Shown piece after piece: positions 2,830 to 33,264 of a DNA stretch of 64,000 bases (positions are counted from its first letter, which is position 1; each line of letters begins with the position of its first letter). Source of the stretch: an uncultured virus (IMG/VR IMGVR_UViG_3300025280_000025) (lineage: Duplodnaviria > Heunggongvirae > Uroviricota > Caudoviricetes); IMG/VR virus record IMGVR_UViG_3300025280_000025; one strand, written 5' to 3'. Under the pieces are notes generated by a model. That model was not told the origin of the DNA, searched no databases, and saw only the letters and a list, made by a program, of their open reading frames with translations. The translations under genes and the position numbers were made by a program.

Positions 2830-3066
2830 TCAAAGGATTTTTATTAGGAGGCTCATGCCCCCAGAAATTACAATAGCAATACCTGCAGCCCACGTAGCTG
2901 CTTTAGTTTGTAGTACGACTATATTACGCTCTATTTTTGCCAGTCTTTTATCCATAGATTCTAATCTTTTATTGGTTCTTTCTAGTTCATTTATAACTAA
3001 TCTCTTATACTGATCCCAACCATTAGTGCCTTCAGAATGTGTTTCCCATGGATTTTGTGGTGGCAT
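2830..3066 (-). CDS. Small coiled-coil protein with C-terminal TM helix (holin/XhlA-like architecture)
   Basis: Heptad segment followed by a hydrophobic tail. Clear homolog at 32124-32357. Confidence 0.6.
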   Translation of the reverse strand: MPPQNPWETHSEGTNGWDQYKRLVINELERTNKRLESMDKRLAKIERNIVVLQTKAATWAAGIAIVISGGMSLLIKIL

Positions 3067-3071
3067 AAAAC

Positions 3072-4061
3072 TTATTCCTCGTACAAGGCTACGATATTAG
3101 TAGCATTAGTGTTAGTAGCCATAACTTTAGTGGCAGGGGTCATCTCTATAATACTACCAACAGCCCTTTTTTTAAGAACTGTAGTTACTCCGTCCAATAC
3201 TACAGCCACATCAGCTTTTTTAGCATTGAACCACTTGTCTGTTAAATAATCATAAATAACTCCTCTTTCTCTAGCACTTAAATTTTTCTTCCATATTAAT
3301 ATTTCAGCAATCTCTCCATCCATACCTTGTCCATAAGTAGGAGTAGTATCTTCTAGTCTTTGTCCTATATAAAGATCATCAGTTCCAGTAAGGTCTTCGG
3401 TATTAGATACAGAACTACCATCAGTAGCATTATTAAGATATAGTTGTAGAGTGTTTACCGAATTCCTCTGTACCCCCACAACATACCAAGTACCTGTACT
3501 TAGTGTCGCAGCACCTACTGCATCATTACCAGAAACATGGAACTTCATAACACCATCATCACAAATCCATGTCCATTCAGACGAGTGTTTATCCTTAGCC
3601 ATTACAGCCGAATTGCCATTCACAGCATCAAACTTAACTAACGCTATCATTGAAAAGGCACCAGTAAAATCAAAATCAGCATGGTCGTCTACCTTAAACC
3701 CATCATCATTTGCTCCAGCCCTATCAAAATCTATAGTGGCTAATCCATTAGTAGCAGCAATACCAGCCTCTACATGAGGAGCGTTTGTTATTGCTGCATT
3801 ATGACTATTGCCAGACTGATCAGCCCATGTGGATATAGTAGTTCCTGATGATACAGCTACCCCAGCATTAGCCTTAAGCCATAGCTTGGGACTGTGTAAG
3901 TCACCTACAACTACATTAGCTTCAAAGTTTCCATCTCCTACATATAATGCACTAAAGAACGGTTCTTCTCCAGGACCGTAAAGAGTACTATCGCTAGGAG
4001 TAATAGCCGAAGCACTAGAATACCCCTTTTTACCGCCATCTTGCATTGGAAAACTAGGCAT
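3072..4061 (-). CDS. Head-spike base-like protein with inserted LamG/ConA-like domain
   Basis: N-terminal ASAITPSDS..ALYVG and C-terminal KVMATNTNATNIVALY resemble the RcGTA Rcc01079 spike-base family. The middle (W.DQSGN, GTWYVV, LYIG, DGEIAEILIW) is LamG-like. Confidence 0.7.
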   Translation of the reverse strand: MPSFPMQDGGKKGYSSASAITPSDSTLYGPGEEPFFSALYVGDGNFEANVVVGDLHSPKLWLKANAGVAVSSGTTISTWADQSGNSHNAAITNAPHVEAGIAATNGLATIDFDRAGANDDGFKVDDHADFDFTGAFSMIALVKFDAVNGNSAVMAKDKHSSEWTWICDDGVMKFHVSGNDAVGAATLSTGTWYVVGVQRNSVNTLQLYLNNATDGSSVSNTEDLTGTDDLYIGQRLEDTTPTYGQGMDGEIAEILIWKKNLSARERGVIYDYLTDKWFNAKKADVAVVLDGVTTVLKKRAVGSIIEMTPATKVMATNTNATNIVALYEE

Positions 4062-14676: not shown

Positions 14677-16364
14677 TCACTCCAGTTCCTTCCTATCCTA
14701 TACTCCCCATCCATAGGTATTTTACATTCTAATCTTTTTCCTGCTTCAACTATTGAACTTACACCTAGCTGTCCTATTTCTTCTGCGATGTTTGGCTTGC
14801 ACTCAAGCTGCCATTCATCATGAACAGTAGCCATAAGTTTAACGCTATCTTTCCACTCATCCTTAGAGTGTATAGCATCATAGAAGATTACCAAAGCCAG
14901 CTTCATAAGTACAGCTCCATCACCTTGTATCTGTACATTCAATGAAGAATGTTTAGATCTACACGGTACTTCTCTCTTATCTAGCAATGTTACTGTACCC
15001 TTCTTAGCTACTTGGAATTTACAATTCTCAATTAATTTCTTTAACGCAGGCATGTTGTCTAAGAACCTTTTCTTAAGTTCTGCTCCAGCACTAACACCTT
15101 TGTCAATGATCTGTCCTATTTTACCATTACCTGCCCCATAAATCAAGGCGTAAAAGAAAGTTTTTGCATCATTTCTGTCACTGAGTCCAGCTTGTTCTTG
15201 GTTGTGCTCATGTATGTCTCCGTTAAGAACCAATGCTCCGTACTCTCCATTGTCCCATGCAGCCATACGATTCGCTAACAGCCGTGCCTCTAATCCACTG
15301 GCATCAATACCAAGTTGAACCCATCCCTCTTGTGGGACAAACAGAGCCCGTGCTCTTGGGTCTCCAGATACTTGTTGTAAGTTAGGTTGACTAGCTGTCA
15401 TCCTACCTGTCACAGCACCTTGAGGATTAATTGATCCGTGTATCTTACCATCTCTTGATAGCCCAGCCCTAATGATCCAGTCAGATAACATACTGCCTAG
15501 CTTTGTCATTTCAAAACATTTAGAAAGCATCTTAGCTTCTGGATATTTTAGCTTGCTTAGTACGGCTTCATCTACCTTAGGATTTCCCTTGTCTGTTAGT
15601 GGGGGTTTCCATCCATACTTCATACCTAATCTCTTAGCAATTTGTTGCCGTGAGTTAGTGTTGAAGTGTTCAACAGAATCTTTTAACCTATTGCCTGTCT
15701 TTTCTGACCATCTCTCTGTTGTAATGGGTGGAAATATACGACACAGCTTGTCTTCTACGCCAGCCTTCTCCATCATTAGCTCTTGCTCTAGTCTTTCGGC
15801 ACCCTCTATGTCAAAGCCCATACCATTTTCCATCTGTTCGGATAGGATAGTACTTACTCTTTGTTCAGTAGTTATAATGTTATTATGATTTACTATGAAA
15901 GACTCTTGCTCTTTGTATATAGCTTCGGATACTTCTACATCTTGTATACAGTACTTAAGCATTTGCTCTGAGAAAGAATCGAATCCTCCATCATACTCAT
16001 CTTTCATAACCCTAAGCTTCTTGCCCCAGTTCTTTAAACTGTTGCCACCTAGAGGATGATTTCTAATATCAGGATACATTATCCTAGAAACAATTAGAGT
16101 ATCTATAGTTGTTACATTAATAGGACCATAGAATCTTTCAAGTACAGGTATATCGTACATGATTATGTTATGTCCTATCAAGGTGTCGGCTTGTCGTAAC
16201 AAGTTAACACCCTCTTCTATCTGGTGTTCTTTAAAAGTATAGACTTTACCTGTGTCTATATCTTTAGCTACAATACACCAGACTTTAGAAACTTCGGGGT
16301 TGTGATTTTTATCTATCGTAACTTCACGCAACCCATTTGCTTCTATGTCAAATACAAGTTCCAT
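14667..16364 (-). CDS. Family A DNA polymerase (T7 gp5-like)
   Basis: FDIEAN exonuclease I, GHNIIMYD, DASGLEAR, AKTFFYALIYG and VHDEWQ motifs. Likely start MELVFD. Confidence 0.95.
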   Translation of the reverse strand: MELVFDIEANGLREVTIDKNHNPEVSKVWCIVAKDIDTGKVYTFKEHQIEEGVNLLRQADTLIGHNIIMYDIPVLERFYGPINVTTIDTLIVSRIMYPDIRNHPLGGNSLKNWGKKLRVMKDEYDGGFDSFSEQMLKYCIQDVEVSEAIYKEQESFIVNHNNIITTEQRVSTILSEQMENGMGFDIEGAERLEQELMMEKAGVEDKLCRIFPPITTERWSEKTGNRLKDSVEHFNTNSRQQIAKRLGMKYGWKPPLTDKGNPKVDEAVLSKLKYPEAKMLSKCFEMTKLGSMLSDWIIRAGLSRDGKIHGSINPQGAVTGRMTASQPNLQQVSGDPRARALFVPQEGWVQLGIDASGLEARLLANRMAAWDNGEYGALVLNGDIHEHNQEQAGLSDRNDAKTFFYALIYGAGNGKIGQIIDKGVSAGAELKKRFLDNMPALKKLIENCKFQVAKKGTVTLLDKREVPCRSKHSSLNVQIQGDGAVLMKLALVIFYDAIHSKDEWKDSVKLMATVHDEWQLECKPNIAEEIGQLGVSSIVEAGKRLECKIPMDGEYRIGRNWSECH

Positions 16365-16950
16365 TTTGTATCTCCTGTGGTTGTACATTATCAATTGCGT
16401 CTTGAATATTTTCACAATCAACATTTAAAAAGTTTGCTATCTTAGTCATCTCTTCTTTAGTGTTGTCTAAGATATCTTCAAAGTAAACAGTTATAGATTC
16501 TATGTTCTTGTTTCTATTTAAAAACTTTCGCACCTCTCTATAATTATTTCTACGAATTACTCCAAGCTTTTGTAGAGTGGGTATGTCTTCCAACATTTCC
16601 ATTCTCTCTTGCGAGGAGGATGTCACCTTGACTTCGGCTTCGTATGCTTTCATAAGACTATTGTCTTGATCTGTAAGAGACCTCCTCTTACAAACAATAA
16701 CTTTACTTACGTGTTCAGAAGCCACCTTGTTTAACCAGTGACCAAATACTTTAACCGCCATGCCTTTAAACTGAAGTCCAACCCCAGCCATTAAGACCTT
16801 GTAGGGCAGGTCATAATAGCCTCTGGGGTTTAGTGACTTCACGGGGAAGTCTGGATGGAAGGGCATGCCTGCTATAGGCATCTTCCATATCTTCAGTGTC
16901 TGCATTAACAGGCTTGTGCCTGCCCTACCAGAGCCTGTAATTATTATCAT
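16348..16950 (-). CDS. Sulfotransferase-family protein
   Basis: IIITGSGRAGTSLLM PAPS-binding loop, NPRGYYD, KVIVCKR and YFEDIL...IANFL motifs. Confidence 0.7.
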   Translation of the reverse strand: MIIITGSGRAGTSLLMQTLKIWKMPIAGMPFHPDFPVKSLNPRGYYDLPYKVLMAGVGLQFKGMAVKVFGHWLNKVASEHVSKVIVCKRRSLTDQDNSLMKAYEAEVKVTSSSQERMEMLEDIPTLQKLGVIRRNNYREVRKFLNRNKNIESITVYFEDILDNTKEEMTKIANFLNVDCENIQDAIDNVQPQEIQNGTCI

Positions 16951-18668
16951 AACTCGTCTCGGTCTAGTACTATGTTGCCATCGTCGGCTAGTGCCCATCC
17001 AATCTCTTGCATTCTACCAGTTATGTGATCATAATACAAGCAGGATGCTACTCCAGCCTTACCTGTTAACCTATTCTTTAATACTCTAATAGTTGTTGTG
17101 TTAGCTAGGATGGGATCAGGGTTTTGCCTGTCTCTCTCTAGTGCTATAACAGTATTAGGTACACTCGACAGAGAACCCGAACCTCTTAAGTCCTGCAAGG
17201 TAATCCTGTCTCCTTCTTCATAAGCTTTCTGAGTCTTCTTGAGTTGTGATACCACATCAATATGAACTCCAGTCCTACTAACTAGTCCTCTAAGTTCTTT
17301 CATTATGTTATCAATTAACAGTCGCTCTGAGTTGCCTCCTTCATAATCATTACTAATGTTAAGCAGCCCAGTTGCAGCAGCAGTTATGTGATCTATTATA
17401 ATTACATCTACTCCTAAAGATACAGCCATGAATTCAATTCTAGAACAGAGGTTCTGTAAACCATTGTTACCTAGGTGATCATAGATATATAGAGAAGTTT
17501 CAGCTAAGGCTCTCTTGCCTTCAGCATACTCTTCATCAGTTAAATCATCTATAATGTTTAAAGATATTTCTTCTTTACCTAGTTTAGTTCTTAGTTCATT
17601 CATAATCTTAGAAGCTCTTAGTGCTCTTACTGGTTTATTAATTACCAATGAAACTAAATCATCAACAGTTTCCCGTGGTGATTCTTCTAACATGATAGCT
17701 CCTACAGATCTACCTTCTTTAAGATGATCAATTATAATCTCTCTTAGAATAGTAGACTTACCTGACCCAGTACCAGAAGTCCATAGAGTTATCTCACCAC
17801 TTCGTTGTCCCAATAGAAACTCCGTTAGAGAATCAAAGGGGAAGGGGTACACTACCTCTACAGCATCTTCTTCTAAGTCATTAGTAATAGAAGACACATG
17901 TAGTATTTCATCTGGAGAATACCTTGGTGCTTCCCATATTGCCTGAAGTACTGCCTTGCTTTCACCATTCAGTGAACATTCGTTAGCATCTTTAAAAGGC
18001 AAGGCTGCTATCTTACATTTTCCTGGTGGTAGTATCTCTGCTACTCTTTGAGATGCTTCTCTTCCTGCTTCGTCCATGTCAAACATTAAGACGATCTCTT
18101 CATAACTACTTAGGAATTCTAAGTTATCACGAACAGATTTCACAGCACCAGAAGCACCATTAGGTAGGCTAACTACAGGCCATTTGTTATCTTGAATTTG
18201 ACTGACTGTCATGCAATCATATTCACCTTCGGTAACTATAATCTTCTTACCACCTTTGTTCTTCCATAGTTGTTGTCCAAACAGTTGTGGCTTTGTAGAA
18301 TCTCCTCTCCATTGAAAGGATTTGTTTGCTCCTCTAAGTTTCTGTGCGACCACCTTACCATCTCGGTAATAGCTACTGATCTCTACTCTTTTTCCATCTT
18401 GAGAGTGAGTCAAGTAACCATATAGCCGTGCTGTCTTTACATTGATCTTGCGATCATTGATAGCTTTGGCTGTGCCTTCTAGAAACTTAAGTTCTGTCAT
18501 AGGTTTTGCTTTAACCATTAGAAGTTCCTTATTATTTTTGTGTTCATAATGTTCACAAGCAAAACAATACTTGTGTCCATCATCATATACCGCTAAATTG
18601 TCTTGAGAATTATCCCGCCCGTGCTGAGCACAGACAGGACATTGTTCCCTACTAATTACATTTGACAT
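16947..18668 (-). CDS. Primase-helicase (T7 gp4-like)
   Basis: Zn ribbon CPVC..CFAC, Toprim TEGEYD/FDMD, Walker A GTGSGKST, IIDH, LRGSG and KNRLTG motifs. Confidence 0.96.
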   Translation of the reverse strand: MSNVISREQCPVCAQHGRDNSQDNLAVYDDGHKYCFACEHYEHKNNKELLMVKAKPMTELKFLEGTAKAINDRKINVKTARLYGYLTHSQDGKRVEISSYYRDGKVVAQKLRGANKSFQWRGDSTKPQLFGQQLWKNKGGKKIIVTEGEYDCMTVSQIQDNKWPVVSLPNGASGAVKSVRDNLEFLSSYEEIVLMFDMDEAGREASQRVAEILPPGKCKIAALPFKDANECSLNGESKAVLQAIWEAPRYSPDEILHVSSITNDLEEDAVEVVYPFPFDSLTEFLLGQRSGEITLWTSGTGSGKSTILREIIIDHLKEGRSVGAIMLEESPRETVDDLVSLVINKPVRALRASKIMNELRTKLGKEEISLNIIDDLTDEEYAEGKRALAETSLYIYDHLGNNGLQNLCSRIEFMAVSLGVDVIIIDHITAAATGLLNISNDYEGGNSERLLIDNIMKELRGLVSRTGVHIDVVSQLKKTQKAYEEGDRITLQDLRGSGSLSSVPNTVIALERDRQNPDPILANTTTIRVLKNRLTGKAGVASCLYYDHITGRMQEIGWALADDGNIVLDRDEL

Positions 18669-18793
18669 TAACTACTCCATGGCATTTTTGTTTTCAGCCA
18701 GTTCCATAGTGGAGTGCCAATCAATGCTCCCGCTACGAATACTACTATTGAATAAAATACTGTACCTAATGCACTACTTAAAATTACATCCAT
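18668..18793 (-). CDS. 41-aa single-TM peptide (not in ORF track)
   Basis: MDVILSSALGTVFYSIVVFVAGALIGTPLWNWLKTKMPWSS; RBS AAGGAG; TAATG-coupled to gp4. Confidence 0.7.
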   Translation of the reverse strand: MDVILSSALGTVFYSIVVFVAGALIGTPLWNWLKTKMPWSS

Positions 18794-19187: not shown

Positions 19188-19568
19188 TCAAAGTTCATTA
19201 ATTCCTAATATAAAATAACCACCATCATAACAGTTCGGTGCCCATTGTTTACAGGCATAAACTTTTTGAATCTGAGTATCATCTTCCCACAATACTCCAT
19301 TAAATGAATCGAATATTGCTTTAAGATAATTATCTATATCAGCTCTCGGAGCCGACAGTTTTGTTTTCTTGGGACGTTTAACATATATTTCTACATCCAC
19401 TTCTAGTGGTGAAGTATATGGAATCGTAGCTGAATCAAACATTTCTTCAACTAAATTCGCCATGTCTTTTCGAAAAGTTTTATAAGGGCCAGCAAAGTAG
19501 GCCCCATGTTTTGTAACACGGGGTCTACTGGCTGCCACTGGACTAATTGGGAACGTCCACTCAGGCAT
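19188..19568 (-). CDS. rusA: RusA-family Holliday junction resolvase
   Basis: P....RPR and DIDNYLKAIFDSFNGVLWEDDTQI motifs. Confidence 0.9.
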   Translation of the reverse strand: MPEWTFPISPVAASRPRVTKHGAYFAGPYKTFRKDMANLVEEMFDSATIPYTSPLEVDVEIYVKRPKKTKLSAPRADIDNYLKAIFDSFNGVLWEDDTQIQKVYACKQWAPNCYDGGYFILGINEL

Positions 19569-24078: not shown

Positions 24079-24626
24079 TATGGGCTTCAAGAGCCTGCCT
24101 TATGCTATCATCGGACGTACCTAAGCACTTAGGCGGTTGAGGCTCCCTGAGTATAGTCTCTTTCGGGAACTATACCACACCCATAGATTTAAGTAGCCCA
24201 GAGCAGGTGTGCTTTATATTTTATCCTGCTTTACTAGTCGCACCGTAGTGCTACTTAGATTGTTATCACTCTCCGTTTACTAGTGTACGCAAGGGACGGA
24301 GTTAACAGAATTCTCATTAGCTTTATGGGTTTATTTCCTCAAGCCAGTACACCTGTACCCTCTGATAGTGATATTAAATTGTCGGGGCAAGTAAGAACGT
24401 GGGCGGGTACCTCTCCGCTTTGTCTCCTGTCACCCTGCCTTTCGGCACTCGGCGAACTTACTTAACCCCATTAGATTGTCGGTAGGTTACGCCTACCAGT
24501 CGAGTATTTTAGACCCTATACTAATGGGTTTCGAGTTTTACAACTTCACAGGTTGTTGTATAGTAGAGATGCCTTGGCTACGAGTAGCCCAAATCTCTTG
24601 AACCCGTTGAGGCCGTGGTCCTATAC
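24079..24626 (-). ncRNA. Tandem array of ~8 compact structured RNA modules (array 1)
   Basis: No credible ORF. Back-to-back closed stems, GAAA/GUAA tetraloops on the minus strand, and four modules repeated in array 2 with compensatory changes. Confidence 0.7.
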
Positions 24627-25610
24627 TAACGAGAGTGCATGACGCATAACACGGGTAGAATTCTTGGCTGCTTCACCGATCAGCTTGTTGCTGATAGTAG
24701 CCTCGGTTGTACGACGCTTACGGTTTTGTAGCCAGTTCGTTACCGCATTAGCTGCGATCCATGCACTGTTACCAAACTCCTCTTGTTCTCTATCAAATGT
24801 TTCAGACCATCCATTAAGTATAGCCATAGCTTTCTTACGAGAGTTATGCTCTTCTTCAGTATAGGATGATCGTTGCGAAGGTATCTCACCTTCAAACATT
24901 GTGTAACAGTCACGCCAGAAGTTTGTTATCTCTTCTCTGTCCCATTTCTTAAGACCTAGTGTACACACTGCTGCTCGGAACTTAGCCTTGTGGTTCTTCC
25001 ATTCATCCAGTGCTTCTTTAAGTCCTAAGATCTTATCTTCCATGTCACCTTTGTGACGTAGTTTAATCATACGCTGTGATCCTTCACTAATAGCCCAGCT
25101 CAATGTGTTGTTACATACAACCCTGACTGAGGTAGGTAGTGCAGATAAACTTAGCGTACCATTGTGACTGTTCATTAAGCAGAGATACTCATGCATCTCA
25201 TCGTTGCCATTCACAGCCCACTCACTGTCCTTCATAAGGACATATGACTGTGCTCCATTGAACAGTGTGCCTGCTGTCTCGACCTGTAATCCAGGTACTG
25301 AGCCAGCAATGTCAAACAGTTCGCTGTTCTGTACAATCTTATAGTTCTTATTGACTACACCTAATACTTCTTCAGTATCAGTACGTACAGTAGCATGGAA
25401 TTTACTAGGCAATGTATAAAGCTTACCATAATAATCATCATTGGCATAATCAGCTACTAAAGGTTCAGACAGTACCACATTAAAGCCCATCTTAGCAAGT
25501 TGCATTGCTTCGTAGGGTGTTGGTGCATTCTCAACGACTGTTCCCAGTCCGTGCCATGCAGGCTTACCAACGTATACGGCATGGTCTTGTTCGTACATTT
25601 CATGTGACAT
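24621..25610 (-). CDS. DUF932-family (phage/plasmid-like) protein
   Basis: PAWHGLG, YKIVQN.ELF and NSHNG...TSVRVVCNNTL...HKG motifs. Confidence 0.9.
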   Translation of the reverse strand: MSHEMYEQDHAVYVGKPAWHGLGTVVENAPTPYEAMQLAKMGFNVVLSEPLVADYANDDYYGKLYTLPSKFHATVRTDTEEVLGVVNKNYKIVQNSELFDIAGSVPGLQVETAGTLFNGAQSYVLMKDSEWAVNGNDEMHEYLCLMNSHNGTLSLSALPTSVRVVCNNTLSWAISEGSQRMIKLRHKGDMEDKILGLKEALDEWKNHKAKFRAAVCTLGLKKWDREEITNFWRDCYTMFEGEIPSQRSSYTEEEHNSRKKAMAILNGWSETFDREQEEFGNSAWIAANAVTNWLQNRKRRTTEATISNKLIGEAAKNSTRVMRHALSLV

Positions 25611-25618
25611 AAGTTCTC

Positions 25619-27712
25619 CTATTCATCACTGTACTTTTCCCAATCGACATCATCCCAACGTTTGAGATCGTCTTTTATTGCCTGTCTCTTGGGTTTCTTT
25701 TTCTTTTTTTTAGGACGATCAGGTTCGGGCTTGTGCTTCTCGTACCTTATCTTCCGCTTTTTTGAGCTCATATTCCTCCATGCCTAAATAGAATTCAACG
25801 ACATCACCAGCTGGAACCCAGCCAGAATCCTCACGATAGACGAAACCATCATCTGTGAAGTCGAGAATCATTCCTAGTTTACGCATTTGTTCTAAACAAT
25901 TATCAGATATTTCTATCTTCATATCTGTCTCCTTAGCAAACAGCTGTATACAAGGCAGCTTTGCCTAGTATAACTATAAGTCTGTTCCAATACAGCATCC
26001 TCATATTTGAGTCACTCCATATTTAACATCCCAATATTTATTTTCTTTATTCCAATTACATTCCATCATTTCAGCCATGTAATCACATTCATAATCAAAA
26101 TCATCAGAATCATAGCCAGTTAAAGTGCCAACAATCCTAGTATAAATTGCTTGATCGACATCATCTGTGTATTGTACCATAATTGTATCGTCTGTCAAGA
26201 CCAATTGTGAATAATTATCATTATATTTTCCATCGCCGTATTCATAGTACCCTATCCCAGCACTTTCTACAGTATAGTCTAAGGTTTCTTTTATTAACAC
26301 ACGAATATCTTCTTCAGATACATAGTTTACTTCATTCATCTTTTATCTCCTTGAGACTAGCTTCTAGTTCTTCCATACTAAAGTTTAGTCTAGTATTAAA
26401 GTTATTTTCAGCTCTATTGAAAGCACCAGCTACTATATGTTCGAGGTCTTTCTCGAAGCCTATCATAGCATCAGAAATTAGGCTATCTATGTGCAGTTCA
26501 GCCCATGTCTTTAGCCTGTCTTCTATAACATCCCATATTCTATCTTGTTCTATATGAAGATCACAGATTATATGTCTGTCGCTCATTTCTTATACTCCTT
26601 TACAGTATAGATTATTCCATCACTCTTTTTACGTAGGCTATTAAAGTCATTGGCATCCTTAACGGCCTCTGATTTCTTATAGTATACAGCAGGCTTCCAG
26701 TCACCGTCGACTATCCAGCCACTATCCTTTACTCTAATGCCCCATTTCTTTACTCCTCGCATGGTACCTCCTTGGTATATGTATCCATACACTCGTCATC
26801 ACAGCCGTTACACCATACATACTCATTAAAAGAACCATCAGCATAGTCATCGCCTGTTATAGTATCATCGTGTAGTTTTTCCAAGGGTATCATTGCATCA
26901 TAGCCTTGCCATAGATCTGTACTATGACACTCACTACAGTGTTCAGTTATCTTTTTCATTCTTATACTCCTTGTGTTGCAAAGTATACTACAATGGCAGT
27001 ACTTACAATCACCTGTATTGTTATTAATACTATGGCAATGCGATTCATTCTTCGTTGCTTGGCTTGTAGTTCTTTATATTTCTGATTCATTCTTCCTCCT
27101 CAAGTGCATCTTCAAAGTAGGAATGATACTTCTTAATCAAGTCATCAACCCAATCCACATCACCACAGCCATGTTGTCCACCACATGCGTGATAGAACTG
27201 ACCACAGACATCCTTCCAATCGGGATCATCCCAATCAATCGCTTGCTTTGGCATCGTATTCATCCTCATCTATAAAGTCTATTCGTTCAGTGTTACAATC
27301 ATCACACCAATTATATTCCCAAGGGTAGTCAAGACCGCCCCTCACAGGCACATCATAGTCGTGACCATGAGTGTTGTTAGGATCATACATTGCTATGTGA
27401 CCCTCAGTTATATTAGTTCCCCCGCATTCGCTACATACCATTGTCACGGTTAGCCTCCTCACGCTCATCTATTTCATTTTCTTCACGAGATTCCATATGC
27501 TTAGTCATCCACTCATCATACTCAACACGCTCGACATCCCAGTCTCGCAGCTCCCCATCCTGTGTCTCCCAGTTATCCCACTCACCCACATAAGGATCTT
27601 TATCAAATATTGCACGGGCTTCTTCCTCTGACTCCGCCTCGACATAGCACTCACATGTTTCCCATGTGGTACTGGTTGTATTGATATCTATCCTATAGTA
27701 TTTCTTAGTCAT
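25619..27712 (-). other. Cluster of ~11 small acidic early genes, including two paralogous Zn-ribbon proteins (26750-26959, 27235-27468)
   Basis: Tightly packed minus-strand ORFs with AGGAG RBS; CSEC...WCxxC in two of them. Confidence 0.7.
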
Positions 27713-27737
27713 ATTGTTCTCCTGTGTTGGGTTAGTA

Positions 27738-28281
27738 ATTTCTTGTGCGGAGAGCCTTCCCTTTCTTAGGGATTCAACTATTTTAGGCTCTTACTCCGCT
27801 ATCAAGAAATAGATTGTGGAGGAGTAGTAGAGATCGGGGTGCTTTATATTTTATCCCGCTTTGGTCGACATGCACCATACTACTACTCCCCCTCTAGAAA
27901 ACCCCCACTAATATTTCTATTAGTGAGGGCGTGTGTAGTAGAGATGCCAAGATTATCTCTATTAACCCGTCTAGCCGTGGTTCTACACAATGGTATTTTA
28001 GACCCTATACCAATGGGTTCGCAGTTTTGGTACACACATGCTCAGGTGAGTAGTGTCTCGTTATCACACTTGTGAACCGCACACAACACGGGTTGATGGT
28101 TGCTGTTGGTGTTAACTTTATTTAAGGGGACCCTTCACCAAATTCAACCAATTAGTAGATACCCTCCAGTCCGAACTATGTAAGACCGAATTACAGTTCA
28201 AGCCCAGCCTAAAGGCACATGACTTTCCGGAAGGTACCTACTAAATGGGGCTCCCGTCATCGGGAAGAATCGGGGAGCCCT
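27738..28281 (-). ncRNA. Tandem array of structured RNA modules (array 2) spanning the segment A/B junction
   Basis: Homologs of four array-1 modules in a different order, plus further multi-stem elements at 27738-27810, 28091-28149 and 28152-28243. Confidence 0.7.
27896..27929 (-). terminator. Intrinsic terminator inside array 2
   Basis: CCCUCACUAAUA-GAAA-UAUUAGUGGGGG-UUUUCU. Confidence 0.65.
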
Positions 28282-28302
28282 AAGAGTGGGGGTGCTGAAT
28301 TA

Positions 28303-28827
28303 TTAACCCCCTAGTAGGGTCATGAGGTATTCACTCTTGTAAGTGGTAGTGCCACGTTCAGTATAATTGCATCGAATCATACATGCAACAGTAGAGTCGC
28401 CATTTAGTTTGGTTTCTACCTCATCGAATGCCGAACCTAGATCAGTTGGCTCATAACCAAGGATGGTTTTGAGGTGACCCTTCAATCTACTGAGTTCGAT
28501 ACGTGCCCGTATTTGTGATCCTTCATGTGTAAGTAAAGAAGCATCGTGTGGGATGGTCATGGGAGCACCATTCCAAATCAATGGTTCTGTTCGGTCAGGG
28601 TCTTCACAGAGTTGATAGTGAAATTGAACAGATACTGCAGGGAATTCTTGTTTGTCATCTGTTTGACGGAAGGTTCCATTTTGTACATTCATTCCGAGAA
28701 CATAACAAGCGTGTTCACCTTTGGGGGGCCATTCTCCTAATGAACCCATCCCTTGGTCTGCGGTTGCGGTTTCGAAATCCGATTGCAAGTTTGAGAAGAT
28801 TGCCTTCGTCTCATTACTAATGCTCAT
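28303..28827 (-). CDS. Putative SSB (DUF669-like OB fold)
   Basis: WPPKGEH pattern; lies downstream of an AAA ATPase and exonuclease. Confidence 0.55.
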   Translation of the reverse strand: MSISNETKAIFSNLQSDFETATADQGMGSLGEWPPKGEHACYVLGMNVQNGTFRQTDDKQEFPAVSVQFHYQLCEDPDRTEPLIWNGAPMTIPHDASLLTHEGSQIRARIELSRLKGHLKTILGYEPTDLGSAFDEVETKLNGDSTVACMIRCNYTERGTTTYKSEYLMTLLGG

Positions 28828-31441: not shown

Positions 31442-31561
31442 TTATCTATTCTTTTGGGGAAGTTCATACCAGTCAAGATAATGACCCGCAAGTATGAGCC
31501 ATCCGACGGCTCCTACTAAGGTTCCTCCAAAGAATATATTTCCTAAGGTATCTGCTAACAT
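31442..31561 (-). CDS. 39-aa single-TM peptide (not in track)
   Basis: MLADTLGNIFFGGTLVGAVGWLILAGHYLDWYELPQKNR; RBS AAGGA. Confidence 0.65.
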   Translation of the reverse strand: MLADTLGNIFFGGTLVGAVGWLILAGHYLDWYELPQKNR

Positions 31562-31570
31562 AATGTTTCC

Positions 31571-31741
31571 TTATACGCTTGCGATAAGATTCCAAAGTTC
31601 ACGACATGCACCTGCTACCCAGTTAACACCTTCCCATGCGAAGGGAAGAAGTGCTAAGGTAATAAGTAAACTACGATTGATACCAACCTTATTAAGGGTT
31701 GAATCGACGATATCACTTGCACAACAATTATCTTTACTCAT
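31571..31741 (-). CDS. 56-aa membrane peptide (not in track)
   Basis: MSKDNCCASDIVDSTLNKVGINRSLLITLALLPFAWEGVNWVAGACRELWNLIASV; ATGA overlap. Confidence 0.65.
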   Translation of the reverse strand: MSKDNCCASDIVDSTLNKVGINRSLLITLALLPFAWEGVNWVAGACRELWNLIASV

Positions 31742-32127
31742 TTGGTTATTTCCTTTTTGAGTTTAACTATACGGGCTTGGCCCAGTGCCTTGATAGCCCA
31801 CAACGTACTAAATACTCCTGATGCTACGATGATCGGGAGTGCTATGAGATGAAAATACTCTTGTAACAAAGTATTAATAAAGATTAACCCTATCCCACCA
31901 AGAACAGGGTACCAACCTTTACGACCCGCTGAAACACAGAGTAAAACGATTCCCCCGAGAATTGAAATCCCCCCAATACTCGAGAGCATTGAGAGGGTAG
32001 GAATGGAGGATGATACTGCCTCTGTAACGGTTGCTATTCCACCCGTACTTGGCTTTGTAGAGAAGAGAGTATCTACGGCACATCCTCCAAGAGAAAAGGA
32101 GATTAGTAATGGGATTAGTTTCTTCAT
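31738..32127 (-). CDS. Lipoprotein-signal protein with ~3 TM helices
   Basis: SLGGC lipobox. Homolog of 18774-19175. Confidence 0.7.
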   Translation of the reverse strand: MKKLIPLLISFSLGGCAVDTLFSTKPSTGGIATVTEAVSSSIPTLSMLSSIGGISILGGIVLLCVSAGRKGWYPVLGGIGLIFINTLLQEYFHLIALPIIVASGVFSTLWAIKALGQARIVKLKKEITK

Positions 32128-32357
32128 ACGAATTTGAGTAAAAGAGTAAGGATACCAGAGAAGAACATGGCTGTCACCCCTGATATCATATACATCTTAG
32201 TCTTTAACTCAGTAATAGATCTATCGATATTGGATAATCGTTTGTCCAATAGATCAAGACGGTTATTGGCGCGATCCAACTCATTAACTACGAGTCGTTT
32301 GTATTCAGCCCAACCGTTCGTTCCTCCTTGGTTTGTTTCCCAAGGTTCGTTTACCAA
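32124..32357 (-). CDS. Coiled-coil + C-terminal TM protein
   Basis: PWET...GTNGW..YKRLV.NEL.R shared with 2830-3066. Confidence 0.65.
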   Translation of the reverse strand: MVNEPWETNQGGTNGWAEYKRLVVNELDRANNRLDLLDKRLSNIDRSITELKTKMYMISGVTAMFFSGILTLLLKFV

Positions 32358-32360
32358 TGT

Positions 32361-32489
32361 TTATCTTCCACCAGTACTAGCACGTTTAATTTTACTTCGT
32401 GATTTTCTACCAATAGTCCGTTTAGCACCCGCTGTACTTTTGGTTCTTTGTGGTACTACTTTCGATTTTTTACCTTTTTTCTTTGGCAT
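32361..32489 (-). CDS. 42-aa protamine-like basic peptide (not in track)
   Basis: MPKKKGKKSKVVPQRTKSTAGAKRTIGRKSRSKIKRASTGGR. Confidence 0.65.
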   Translation of the reverse strand: MPKKKGKKSKVVPQRTKSTAGAKRTIGRKSRSKIKRASTGGR

Positions 32490-32509: not shown

Positions 32510-32620
32510 TTATATAGTTCTTCGTCTCTTTTTGGGTTTTCGTTTTCTAGTTTTACCAGCGGTTCTTTTTTGAGCACCACCTGTACTCTTTTTCTTATCT
32601 TTTTTATATGCGTATGCCAT
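32510..32620 (-). CDS. 36-aa protamine-like basic peptide (not in track)
   Basis: MAYAYKKDKKKSTGGAQKRTAGKTRKRKPKKRRRTI; TAATG-coupled. Confidence 0.65.
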   Translation of the reverse strand: MAYAYKKDKKKSTGGAQKRTAGKTRKRKPKKRRRTI

Positions 32621-33264
32621 TAACCTACAAACCTTCCTAATATAAGACCTTCTGATACAGAATCAAAATCTTTAACACCTACACAGATACTTTTACAACC
32701 TGCTAAATATACTGAGGTTCTATGACCCATAAACCATGGGCCGGCTCCTGCCCAATGAAAGTTTTCTGTTAGATCCATTTGAAGACTGATTACTCCTGCT
32801 TGGTCAGTATCAAGTGTTGGCGCAGCTTTAGCCATCCACACCGCTTCTAGATTTTGAAGAGGAATCCACATATCAGTAGGATCCCCATAACTGCCGGAGT
32901 TTACATCGTGTGGCCATTTACGATCTGCGCCTGTAAGACCATCTTTAACAGGTACTTTACCCCACACACCAATCCTTACAGTATGGTCAGCTGCAGTGTC
33001 TGAAGTTAGAAAGAGTTCAAGACTTAGACCTGCAGAAGGTACAATAATTTCTTGTGAGTTTGTACCTAAAGTTGTAACGGTATTACTATAAGCTGCTACA
33101 AGTTCTTGTGGTTGATTCCATACTGCAGTAGCACCTGTACCATCATCATCTATTACGTTATCATGGACTACGAATATGTTTGAACCCCATGATGCTGCGG
33201 GTGCTCCGATGGCAGGTGCATCAAATATAAATGTATTATTGAATTTTGTGGTGGGTGTAGCCAT
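32620..33264 (-). CDS. Hypothetical beta-rich protein, possibly a virion component
   Basis: T/A/G-rich composition; RBS GGAG. Confidence 0.5.
   Translation of the reverse strand: MATPTTKFNNTFIFDAPAIGAPAASWGSNIFVVHDNVIDDDGTGATAVWNQPQELVAAYSNTVTTLGTNSQEIIVPSAGLSLELFLTSDTAADHTVRIGVWGKVPVKDGLTGADRKWPHDVNSGSYGDPTDMWIPLQNLEAVWMAKAAPTLDTDQAGVISLQMDLTENFHWAGAGPWFMGHRTSVYLAGCKSICVGVKDFDSVSEGLILGRFVG

Follow-up and report, generated by a model that had tools for sequence, protein, structure and literature searches.

Many uncultured marine phages have lysis genes that are still unidentified. Here we describe three linked membrane-protein genes in the IMG/VR virus record IMGVR_UViG_3300025280_000025, from an uncultured virus of the Caudoviricetes, and weigh the roles that they might play during infection. 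The stretch that was analysed, called the window below, is 64,000 nucleotides (nt) long, and all positions are those of the whole stretch. According to the listing of its open reading frames (ORFs) and to family scans, the window holds two phage genomes lying end to end: a T7-like phage A (1 to ~27.7 kb, minus strand) and, from ~28.3 kb, a phage B that belongs to an unrelated phage type of ~55 kb. An earlier note, made from the letters alone, had marked the interval 31442..32357 in B as a membrane cassette with counterparts in A. The three parts are a coiled-coil protein with a membrane helix (ccTM), a lipoprotein with hydrophobic segments (lipoTM) and a hydrophobic micro-peptide (pepTM), and together with one further small gene they lie as follows.

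32124..32357, minus strand: ccTM of B, 77 amino acids (aa), with a ~55-aa N-terminal coiled coil and a C-terminal membrane helix (tail anchor)
31738..32127, minus strand: lipoTM of B, 129 aa, with a signal peptide, LGGC lipobox (Cys16), ~28-aa linker, three hydrophobic segments (45-67, 74-88 and 94-115) and a basic C-terminal tail
31571..31741, minus strand: small protein of 56 aa with one weakly hydrophobic segment
31442..31561, minus strand: pepTM of B, a single-pass hydrophobic peptide of 39 aa
18774..19175, minus strand: lipoTM of A, 133 aa, with an LGGC lipobox (Cys20) and three hydrophobic segments
18668..18793, minus strand: pepTM of A, a single-pass hydrophobic peptide of 41 aa, sharing 20 nt with the end of the lipoTM gene
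2830..3066, minus strand: ccTM of A, 78 aa, flanked by the scaffold gene (1852-2793) and that of a LamG-domain protein (3072-4061)

The ORFs that the earlier note had named are all present on the minus strand, and the two protein alignments that it drew between the phages are borne out by BLASTP. The lipoTM proteins of B and A align over their whole length with 45 of 131 residues identical (34%, E 4e-20), and the ccTM proteins share 37 of 73 residues (51%, E 2e-27). The pairing of a ~40-aa membrane peptide near the lipoprotein gene in each phage holds as to single-pass character and position after lipoTM but not as to sequence, since the two peptides do not align by BLASTP; the kinship of the pepTM of A and of B rests on position and on the family alignment of 18 sequences described below. 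The 56-aa ORF at 31571-31741 had been missed altogether; it is kept at 64-100% identity in 25 tblastn places, all of them in B-type loci. In B the stop of ccTM overlaps the start of lipoTM by 4 nt, and the stop of lipoTM overlaps the start of the 56-aa ORF by another 4 nt, which suggests coupled translation of the three. The set is clustered in B and, as the note had also said, split in A, where lipoTM is flanked by the RusA resolvase gene (19188-19568) and the primase/helicase gene (16947-18668).

The protein families and their linkage

A word-indexed search returned 39 close relatives of lipoTM, and among 1.84 billion proteins 87 representative clusters were found at E ≤ 1e-3. When 49 diverse members were aligned, some of them only ~20% identical, the sole invariant column proved to be the Cys of the lipobox, whose commonest forms are LAGC (15), LSGC (4), LGGC (3) and LTGC (3). 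The n-region of the signal peptide carries a mean net charge of +1.45. By its signal peptide, hydrophobic core, lipobox and invariant Cys, lipoTM is predicted to be a bacterial lipoprotein and a substrate of Lgt and Lsp. The Cys is followed by a linker rich in Ser, Ala, Gly, Pro and Thr (mean 28.4 residues), then by three hydrophobic segments and a basic tail. The linker has a mean net charge of -0.8, loop 1 of +1.4, loop 2 of ~0 and the C-terminal tail of +2.7, as would suit a mature protein whose N-terminus lies outside and whose C-terminus lies inside.

The ccTM family has 163 relatives at E ≤ 0.01 and a well conserved layout, in which ~52 residues of mixed charge lead into an uncharged helix of 20 residues and end after ~3 more. 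The PHROG that its members match most often is the unnamed phrog_1103 (27 of 33 members). Neither lipoTM nor ccTM has a match above cut-off in Pfam, PHROGs or NCBIfam, and in the protein atlas the families meet only unnamed viral clusters. Both are known only from marine metagenomic or viral contigs. Against deposited phage genomes, tblastn gave only three chance-level matches for lipoTM (E 0.9) and none for ccTM. Nor was a relative of lipoTM found in the species-representative genomes scanned; one weak ccTM-like match there, in a metagenome-assembled genome (MAG) labelled 'uncultured Sangeribacter sp.', was discounted. The suggestion that the host might be a member of the Planctomycetota therefore finds no support, as neither family was found in the species-representative genomes.

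The micro-peptide follows lipoTM throughout the family. Among 21 distinct lipoTM variants, 18 have a hydrophobic ORF of 32-48 aa starting between -25 and +185 nt from the lipoTM stop, and the remaining three have the same kind of peptide in an overlapping frame, so that pepTM, at 35-47 aa, comes after lipoTM in 21 of 21. The 18 peptides align, with an LGT-aromatic start, a conserved Phe-x-x-Gly core, one invariant Gly and a basic end. As a pair, lipoTM and pepTM were found in at least five genome settings:

A-type phages: between RusA and primase/helicase
B-type phages: after ccTM and before a PD-(D/E)XK nuclease
A second T7-like lineage (G004): between scaffold and capsid
A third T7-like lineage (G003): between a 714-aa unnamed protein and the tail-tube genes, with a 283-aa protein also adjoining
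A further contig type (L108): after a nuclease-like gene

The lipoTM of G004 is 68% identical to that of B but 34% to that of A, which points to transfer between unrelated phages.

Linkage to ccTM takes three forms. Among 74 newly fetched ccTM loci, 73 contain the ORF, and in 11 of these lipoTM lies directly downstream with its start overlapping the ccTM stop by 4-10 nt; every B-type locus fetched carries lipoTM. In the A-type phages the split form is the rule: ccTM lies directly before the scaffold gene, and a profile search of whole records found lipoTM 14-16 kb away from it in all seven ccTM-bearing A-type records that are at least 87% complete, as against none of three records of other types that are 33-64% complete. 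Finally, the two proteins occur as natural fusions in two clusters, P0204 (175 aa, 4 contigs) and P0199 (192 aa, 3 contigs). Their N-termini match the ccTM profile (E 1.5e-11 and 2.5e-7, respectively; for P0204 also the ccTM of B by BLASTP, E 6e-13), a lipobox comes immediately after the ccTM helix, and the remainder matches lipoTM (BLASTP of P0204, E 5e-8). To judge from these sequences, the membrane helix of ccTM is in the fusions the signal peptide of the lipoprotein. The fusions therefore tie ccTM and lipoTM together functionally, and they also make it likely that ccTM is oriented with its coiled coil in the cytoplasm and its helix crossing outward.

A proposed holin-like module and the competing readings

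The question of what the trio does is sharpened by what its genomes seem to lack. Like the earlier note, we found no endolysin in the window, whether by PHROGs or by Pfam (89 and 67 ORFs scanned). Two related genomes are complete with terminal repeats, the B-type G002 (55,594 bp) and the A-type G010 (63,982 bp), and were scanned ORF by ORF. This gene-by-gene scan revealed no recognisable holin, endolysin or spanin in either; there was no match to a PHROG of the lysis category and no muralytic Pfam match, although ORFs under ~45-60 aa and those on the opposite strand were left out, so that a very small holin could have been missed. In six-frame searches for which control genomes were positive, the families Phage_lysozyme, SLT, Amidase_2 and Peptidase_M15_4 were found in none of five records at least 96% complete (G002, G006, G008, G009 and G010), and therefore large proteins of the internal-virion type are also without them. 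What is absent are recognisable lysis genes, which is not proof that there are none, since most ORFs of A and B match no family.

Our tentative reading, to which we give a probability of about 0.4, is that the trio forms an inner-membrane module that permeabilises or destabilises the host envelope late in infection, holin-like in its action and built from unusual parts. In this scheme the coiled coil of ccTM would lie in the cytoplasm, with the single C-terminal helix in the membrane. The lipoTM protein would be exported and cut at the lipobox, its new N-terminal Cys would be lipidated on the periplasmic face, and the short flexible linker would lead into three membrane helices (N-out, C-in) and a basic cytoplasmic tail, an arrangement that class I holins have. 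The next reading frame, which overlaps, would supply pepTM as a single-pass partner with its acidic N-terminus out and its basic C-terminus in. By analogy with the XhlA/XhlB and gp24.1/gp26 pairs described below, the coiled-coil protein with one helix and the protein with several helices might then breach the membrane jointly. A lysis-type reading is the best supported, as it accounts for a partner built like XhlA, for the topology and tail by which lipoTM resembles a holin, for core-gene status in two lineages, for mobility in the manner of a cassette and for the fact that no other candidates were found. A complex prediction for mature lipoTM, pepTM and ccTM gave a score of 0.00 against a mark of 0.32 and counts neither way on binding.

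Several known systems resemble parts of this design. Class I holins of the lambda S type are small proteins with three predicted membrane helices, an N-out/C-in topology and a basic cytoplasmic C-terminal tail, and the hydropathy and positive-inside pattern of lipoTM are compatible with this class. Unlike them, lipoTM has a cleavable lipoprotein signal and a predicted lipid-anchored N-terminus, no dual-start motif and no adjacent endolysin. The colicin lysis lipoproteins are small lipobox proteins that cause quasi-lysis, and their cleaved signal peptide persists and contributes to the effect; the fused form of ccTM and lipoTM would likewise leave a long-lived 'signal peptide'. They differ in being far smaller when mature, in having no membrane helices after the lipobox and in being plasmid-borne. 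For micro-proteins such as pepTM there is a precedent in Lcc6 of the Shewanella phage LambdaSo, a transmembrane protein of 65 aa from no known family that is described as required for lysis at the holin step (bioRxiv 10.1101/2024.01.23.576932). The likeness to Lcc6 is one of description, and LambdaSo, as that report presents it, differs in having a full set of pinholin, endolysin of the signal-anchor-release (SAR) kind and spanin.

The closest comparison is with XhlA of PBSX and gp24.1 of SPP1. Like ccTM, these proteins of ~70-90 aa have a coiled coil at the N-terminus and a single membrane helix at the C-terminus, and their gene directly precedes and overlaps that of a small multi-helix membrane protein, XhlB or gp26. 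Each pair is described as two holins that are harmless singly and lethal jointly (PMC6316719), and vesicle production in B. subtilis, as measured in another report, needed xhlA, xhlB and xlyA, in agreement with an earlier report on lysis (PMC5589764). By sequence, 17 of 33 ccTM members match Pfam XhlA (PF10779) at E ≤ 1 (best E 7.3e-4), a weak and sub-threshold likeness, and 17 of 33 match phrog_1193, 'hemolysin', also weakly (best E 3e-4). We read the resemblance as one of build and claim no homology, because profile-profile comparison by hhalign gave probabilities of only 7.2% with SPP1 gp24.1 and 8.7% with six XhlA-type proteins of Bacillus phages. There are further differences: XhlA pairs with a two-helix holin, ccTM with a lipoprotein that has three hydrophobic segments; the trio has a micro-peptide as its constant third member; and the XhlA/XhlB pairs come from Bacillus phages, whereas the hosts of the trio's phages are marine organisms and not Bacillus. 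The typical setting beside a holin and an endolysin recurs only in one distant relative, the locus L109 (ccTM profile E 2.3e-15), where the ccTM-like gene comes first, and after it stand a basic ORF of 62 aa, the gene of a multi-helix protein of 114 aa and a Phage_lysozyme gene (PF00959, E 8e-28; phrog_7, E 9e-37); in A and B there is no endolysin.

A good deal weighs against a holin-like role, beginning with these low profile probabilities. Neither copy of ccTM in the window matches Pfam XhlA at E ≤ 0.01, and searches of Pfam, PHROGs and NCBIfam placed lipoTM in no holin family. The reading is weakened both by the faintness of this sequence evidence and by the single endolysin-linked case, which is one in 80 loci. 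A holin needs a muralytic partner, and none was seen. Nor do the genes always travel together: 62 of the 73 ccTM loci that contain the ORF have no lipoTM within 6 kb and keep ccTM in the head-gene block, and in G003 (79% complete) and G004 (65% complete), which have lipoTM and pepTM, no ccTM was detected. Replication genes, and not a late lysis cassette, surround the lipoTM-pepTM pair in both A and B. As modelled by AlphaFold2 (pLDDT 72.8, pTM 0.37), lipoTM has helices at 4-19, 32-39 and 43-66 and one long helix at 72-128; the model does not resolve a hairpin between helices 2 and 3, so that the three-pass topology rests on hydropathy and charge. Finally, we know of no holin with a lipoprotein signal, and a narrow literature search on holins, spanins and the lysis of marine podoviruses turned up neither a lipoprotein holin nor a description of these families.

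The earlier note had set lysis and exclusion side by side; a lysis-type role has come out as the best single reading on circumstantial support, while superinfection exclusion seems to us somewhat unlikely. In that case a membrane lipoprotein complex would block the entry of competing phage DNA or shield receptors, and membrane lipoproteins are indeed a classic exclusion device of phages, as in T5 Llp, Cor and TP-J34 Ltp. In A and B the lipoTM-pepTM pair has replication genes of the early or middle kind around it, which would suit such a role, as would its movement between unrelated phages that probably share a host. Exclusion genes, however, are usually accessory and patchy, whereas none of the seven near-complete A-type genomes and none of the fetched B-type loci is without lipoTM; the pair stands among late structural genes in two other T7-like lineages, its ccTM partner has a cytoplasmic coiled coil of XhlA-like form, and no similarity to any PHROG exclusion family was found. 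We think it quite unlikely that the trio is instead the whole of the lysis machinery, an endolysin-free route in tailed double-stranded DNA phages. The lipid-anchored three-helix protein, its tail-anchored coiled-coil partner and the micro-peptide would then replace both holin and spanin, either by tying the inner to the outer membrane or by blocking a host envelope pathway such as lipoprotein sorting or the supply of cell-wall precursors, and the cell would burst without a muralytic enzyme of the phage.

The position of ccTM raises a different idea, in which it would hold some process of the cytoplasm, for instance the initiation of procapsids, at the inner membrane while lipoTM and pepTM stabilise the site. 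This would explain why in most loci ccTM stands between portal-side genes and the scaffold gene and why lipoTM adjoins recombination or replication genes in A, B and L108, and one ccTM weakly matches a head-formation family of gene transfer agents (GTA) in NCBIfam (E 0.0064, 16 bits). That match, however, is one among 14 ccTM proteins scanned and falls far under the cut-off of 50 bits; ccTM of the B-type phages is far from the head genes and coupled to lipoTM, the position of lipoTM differs between lineages, and a fusion to a lipoprotein that faces the periplasm fits a capsid role poorly. We regard such a tether as very unlikely. More improbable still is a role of lipoTM as a unimolecular spanin, a class to which the earlier note had likened it; the protein would then link the two host membranes, reaching the outer one by its lipid anchor and the inner one by its C-terminal membrane part, and fuse them as lysis ends. 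T1 gp11, the unimolecular spanin, is described as combining, within a similar ~130 aa, an N-terminal lipoylation signal with a C-terminal membrane part, which is the formal definition (PMC6139136). The likeness stands to the extent that lipoTM has both a lipobox and C-terminal membrane segments, and the complete genomes G002 and G010 yielded no two-component spanin. Moreover, by the +2 rule of E. coli a lipid anchor without Asp at position +2 goes to the outer membrane, and none of the 49 lipoTM sequences has Asp there. The spanin reading fails because the linker is short: where gp11 has a beta-rich periplasmic domain of ~90 residues, lipoTM has a low-complexity linker with a mean of 28 residues (~10 nm when fully stretched), in which AlphaFold2 shows only the short helix 32-39. 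There are also three hydrophobic segments in place of one helix, and lipoTM, which has no PHROG lysis match, stands outside any lysis cassette, with RusA and primase (A), the PD-(D/E)XK nuclease (B) or scaffold and capsid (G004) as neighbours and no endolysin adjoining.

Whatever its role, two unrelated and apparently widespread phage types share linked membrane proteins that match no curated family, in genomes where no ordinary lysis gene was found. If the trio does control lysis, holins would gain a new building plan, in which a lipoprotein holin is joined by a tail-anchored partner and by a micro-peptide. The trio would then be a marker by which lysis could be annotated in many phages known from metagenomes, and it might point to hosts whose envelope is unusual. 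Should its role be exclusion, it would be unusually conserved for such a device. The parts are small and easily tested in the laboratory.

The two phage genomes and further shared genes

Phage A carries genes for the major capsid protein, scaffold, portal, ribonucleotide reductase, exonuclease, DNA polymerase, primase/helicase, RusA, a gp2.5-like single-stranded DNA-binding protein and a single-subunit RNA polymerase. Phage B has on its minus strand a Sak4-like protein, the PD-(D/E)XK nuclease, an ERCC4 nuclease, a family A polymerase, a uracil-DNA glycosylase and a primase, and on its plus strand the large terminase, an SU10-type adaptor and collagen-like fibres. No deposited phage record exceeds 31% identity to the portal of A, and the terminase of B has no match among deposited phages; by these sequence comparisons neither phage appears close to any deposited one. 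The boundary between them falls within 27,712-28,303, as homology to A-type phages runs up to 27,712 and homology to B-type phages starts at 28,303, and either a chimeric assembly or a real join could account for it. At this junction B is without the small genes that follow a 174-aa gene in its complete relative G002.

Directly upstream of ccTM in B lie two tiny, very basic ORFs with 17 Lys and Arg residues each:

32361-32489, minus strand: 42 aa
32510-32620, minus strand: 36 aa

They are kept only in near-identical loci. Very basic ORFs of 30-56 aa also precede ccTM in three A-type loci (L044, L046 and L066), and because those of the A-type phages and of B do not align by BLASTP, we have left them out of the module, their membership being uncertain. 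Further upstream, a 214-aa protein (32620-33264, minus strand) is conserved in all B-type loci. It was considered as a hidden endolysin, but its model, a beta-sandwich of low confidence (pLDDT 57.9) with no PDB match at E ≤ 0.001, was uninformative.

Other genes, too, are common to the two phage types. A small ORF in the early region of A (27087-27269, minus strand) matches a small ORF of the B-type G002 (58% over 45 aa, E 1.6e-14), and a DUF932 protein occurs in A at 24621-25610 (E 2e-37) and in G002 at L029:18573-19367 (E 7e-6). A further shared membrane protein, which was not found in the window, is a 105-aa protein of A-type phages with a coiled coil and one or more membrane segments (L119:5558-5875, and L071:5556-5879, there directly before ccTM), whose relatives in two B-type loci are 31-33% identical (L015:18114-18395 and L020:12958-13239). 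Among the A-type phages, a protein with a sulfotransferase-like C-terminus (16348-16998, minus strand) lies between primase/helicase and DNA polymerase and has a counterpart in G010 (L120:4412-5059). G010 also contains, from L118:10372 to L119:5558, a 4,728-aa ORF preceded by one of 1,328 aa, neither with a Pfam or PHROG match.

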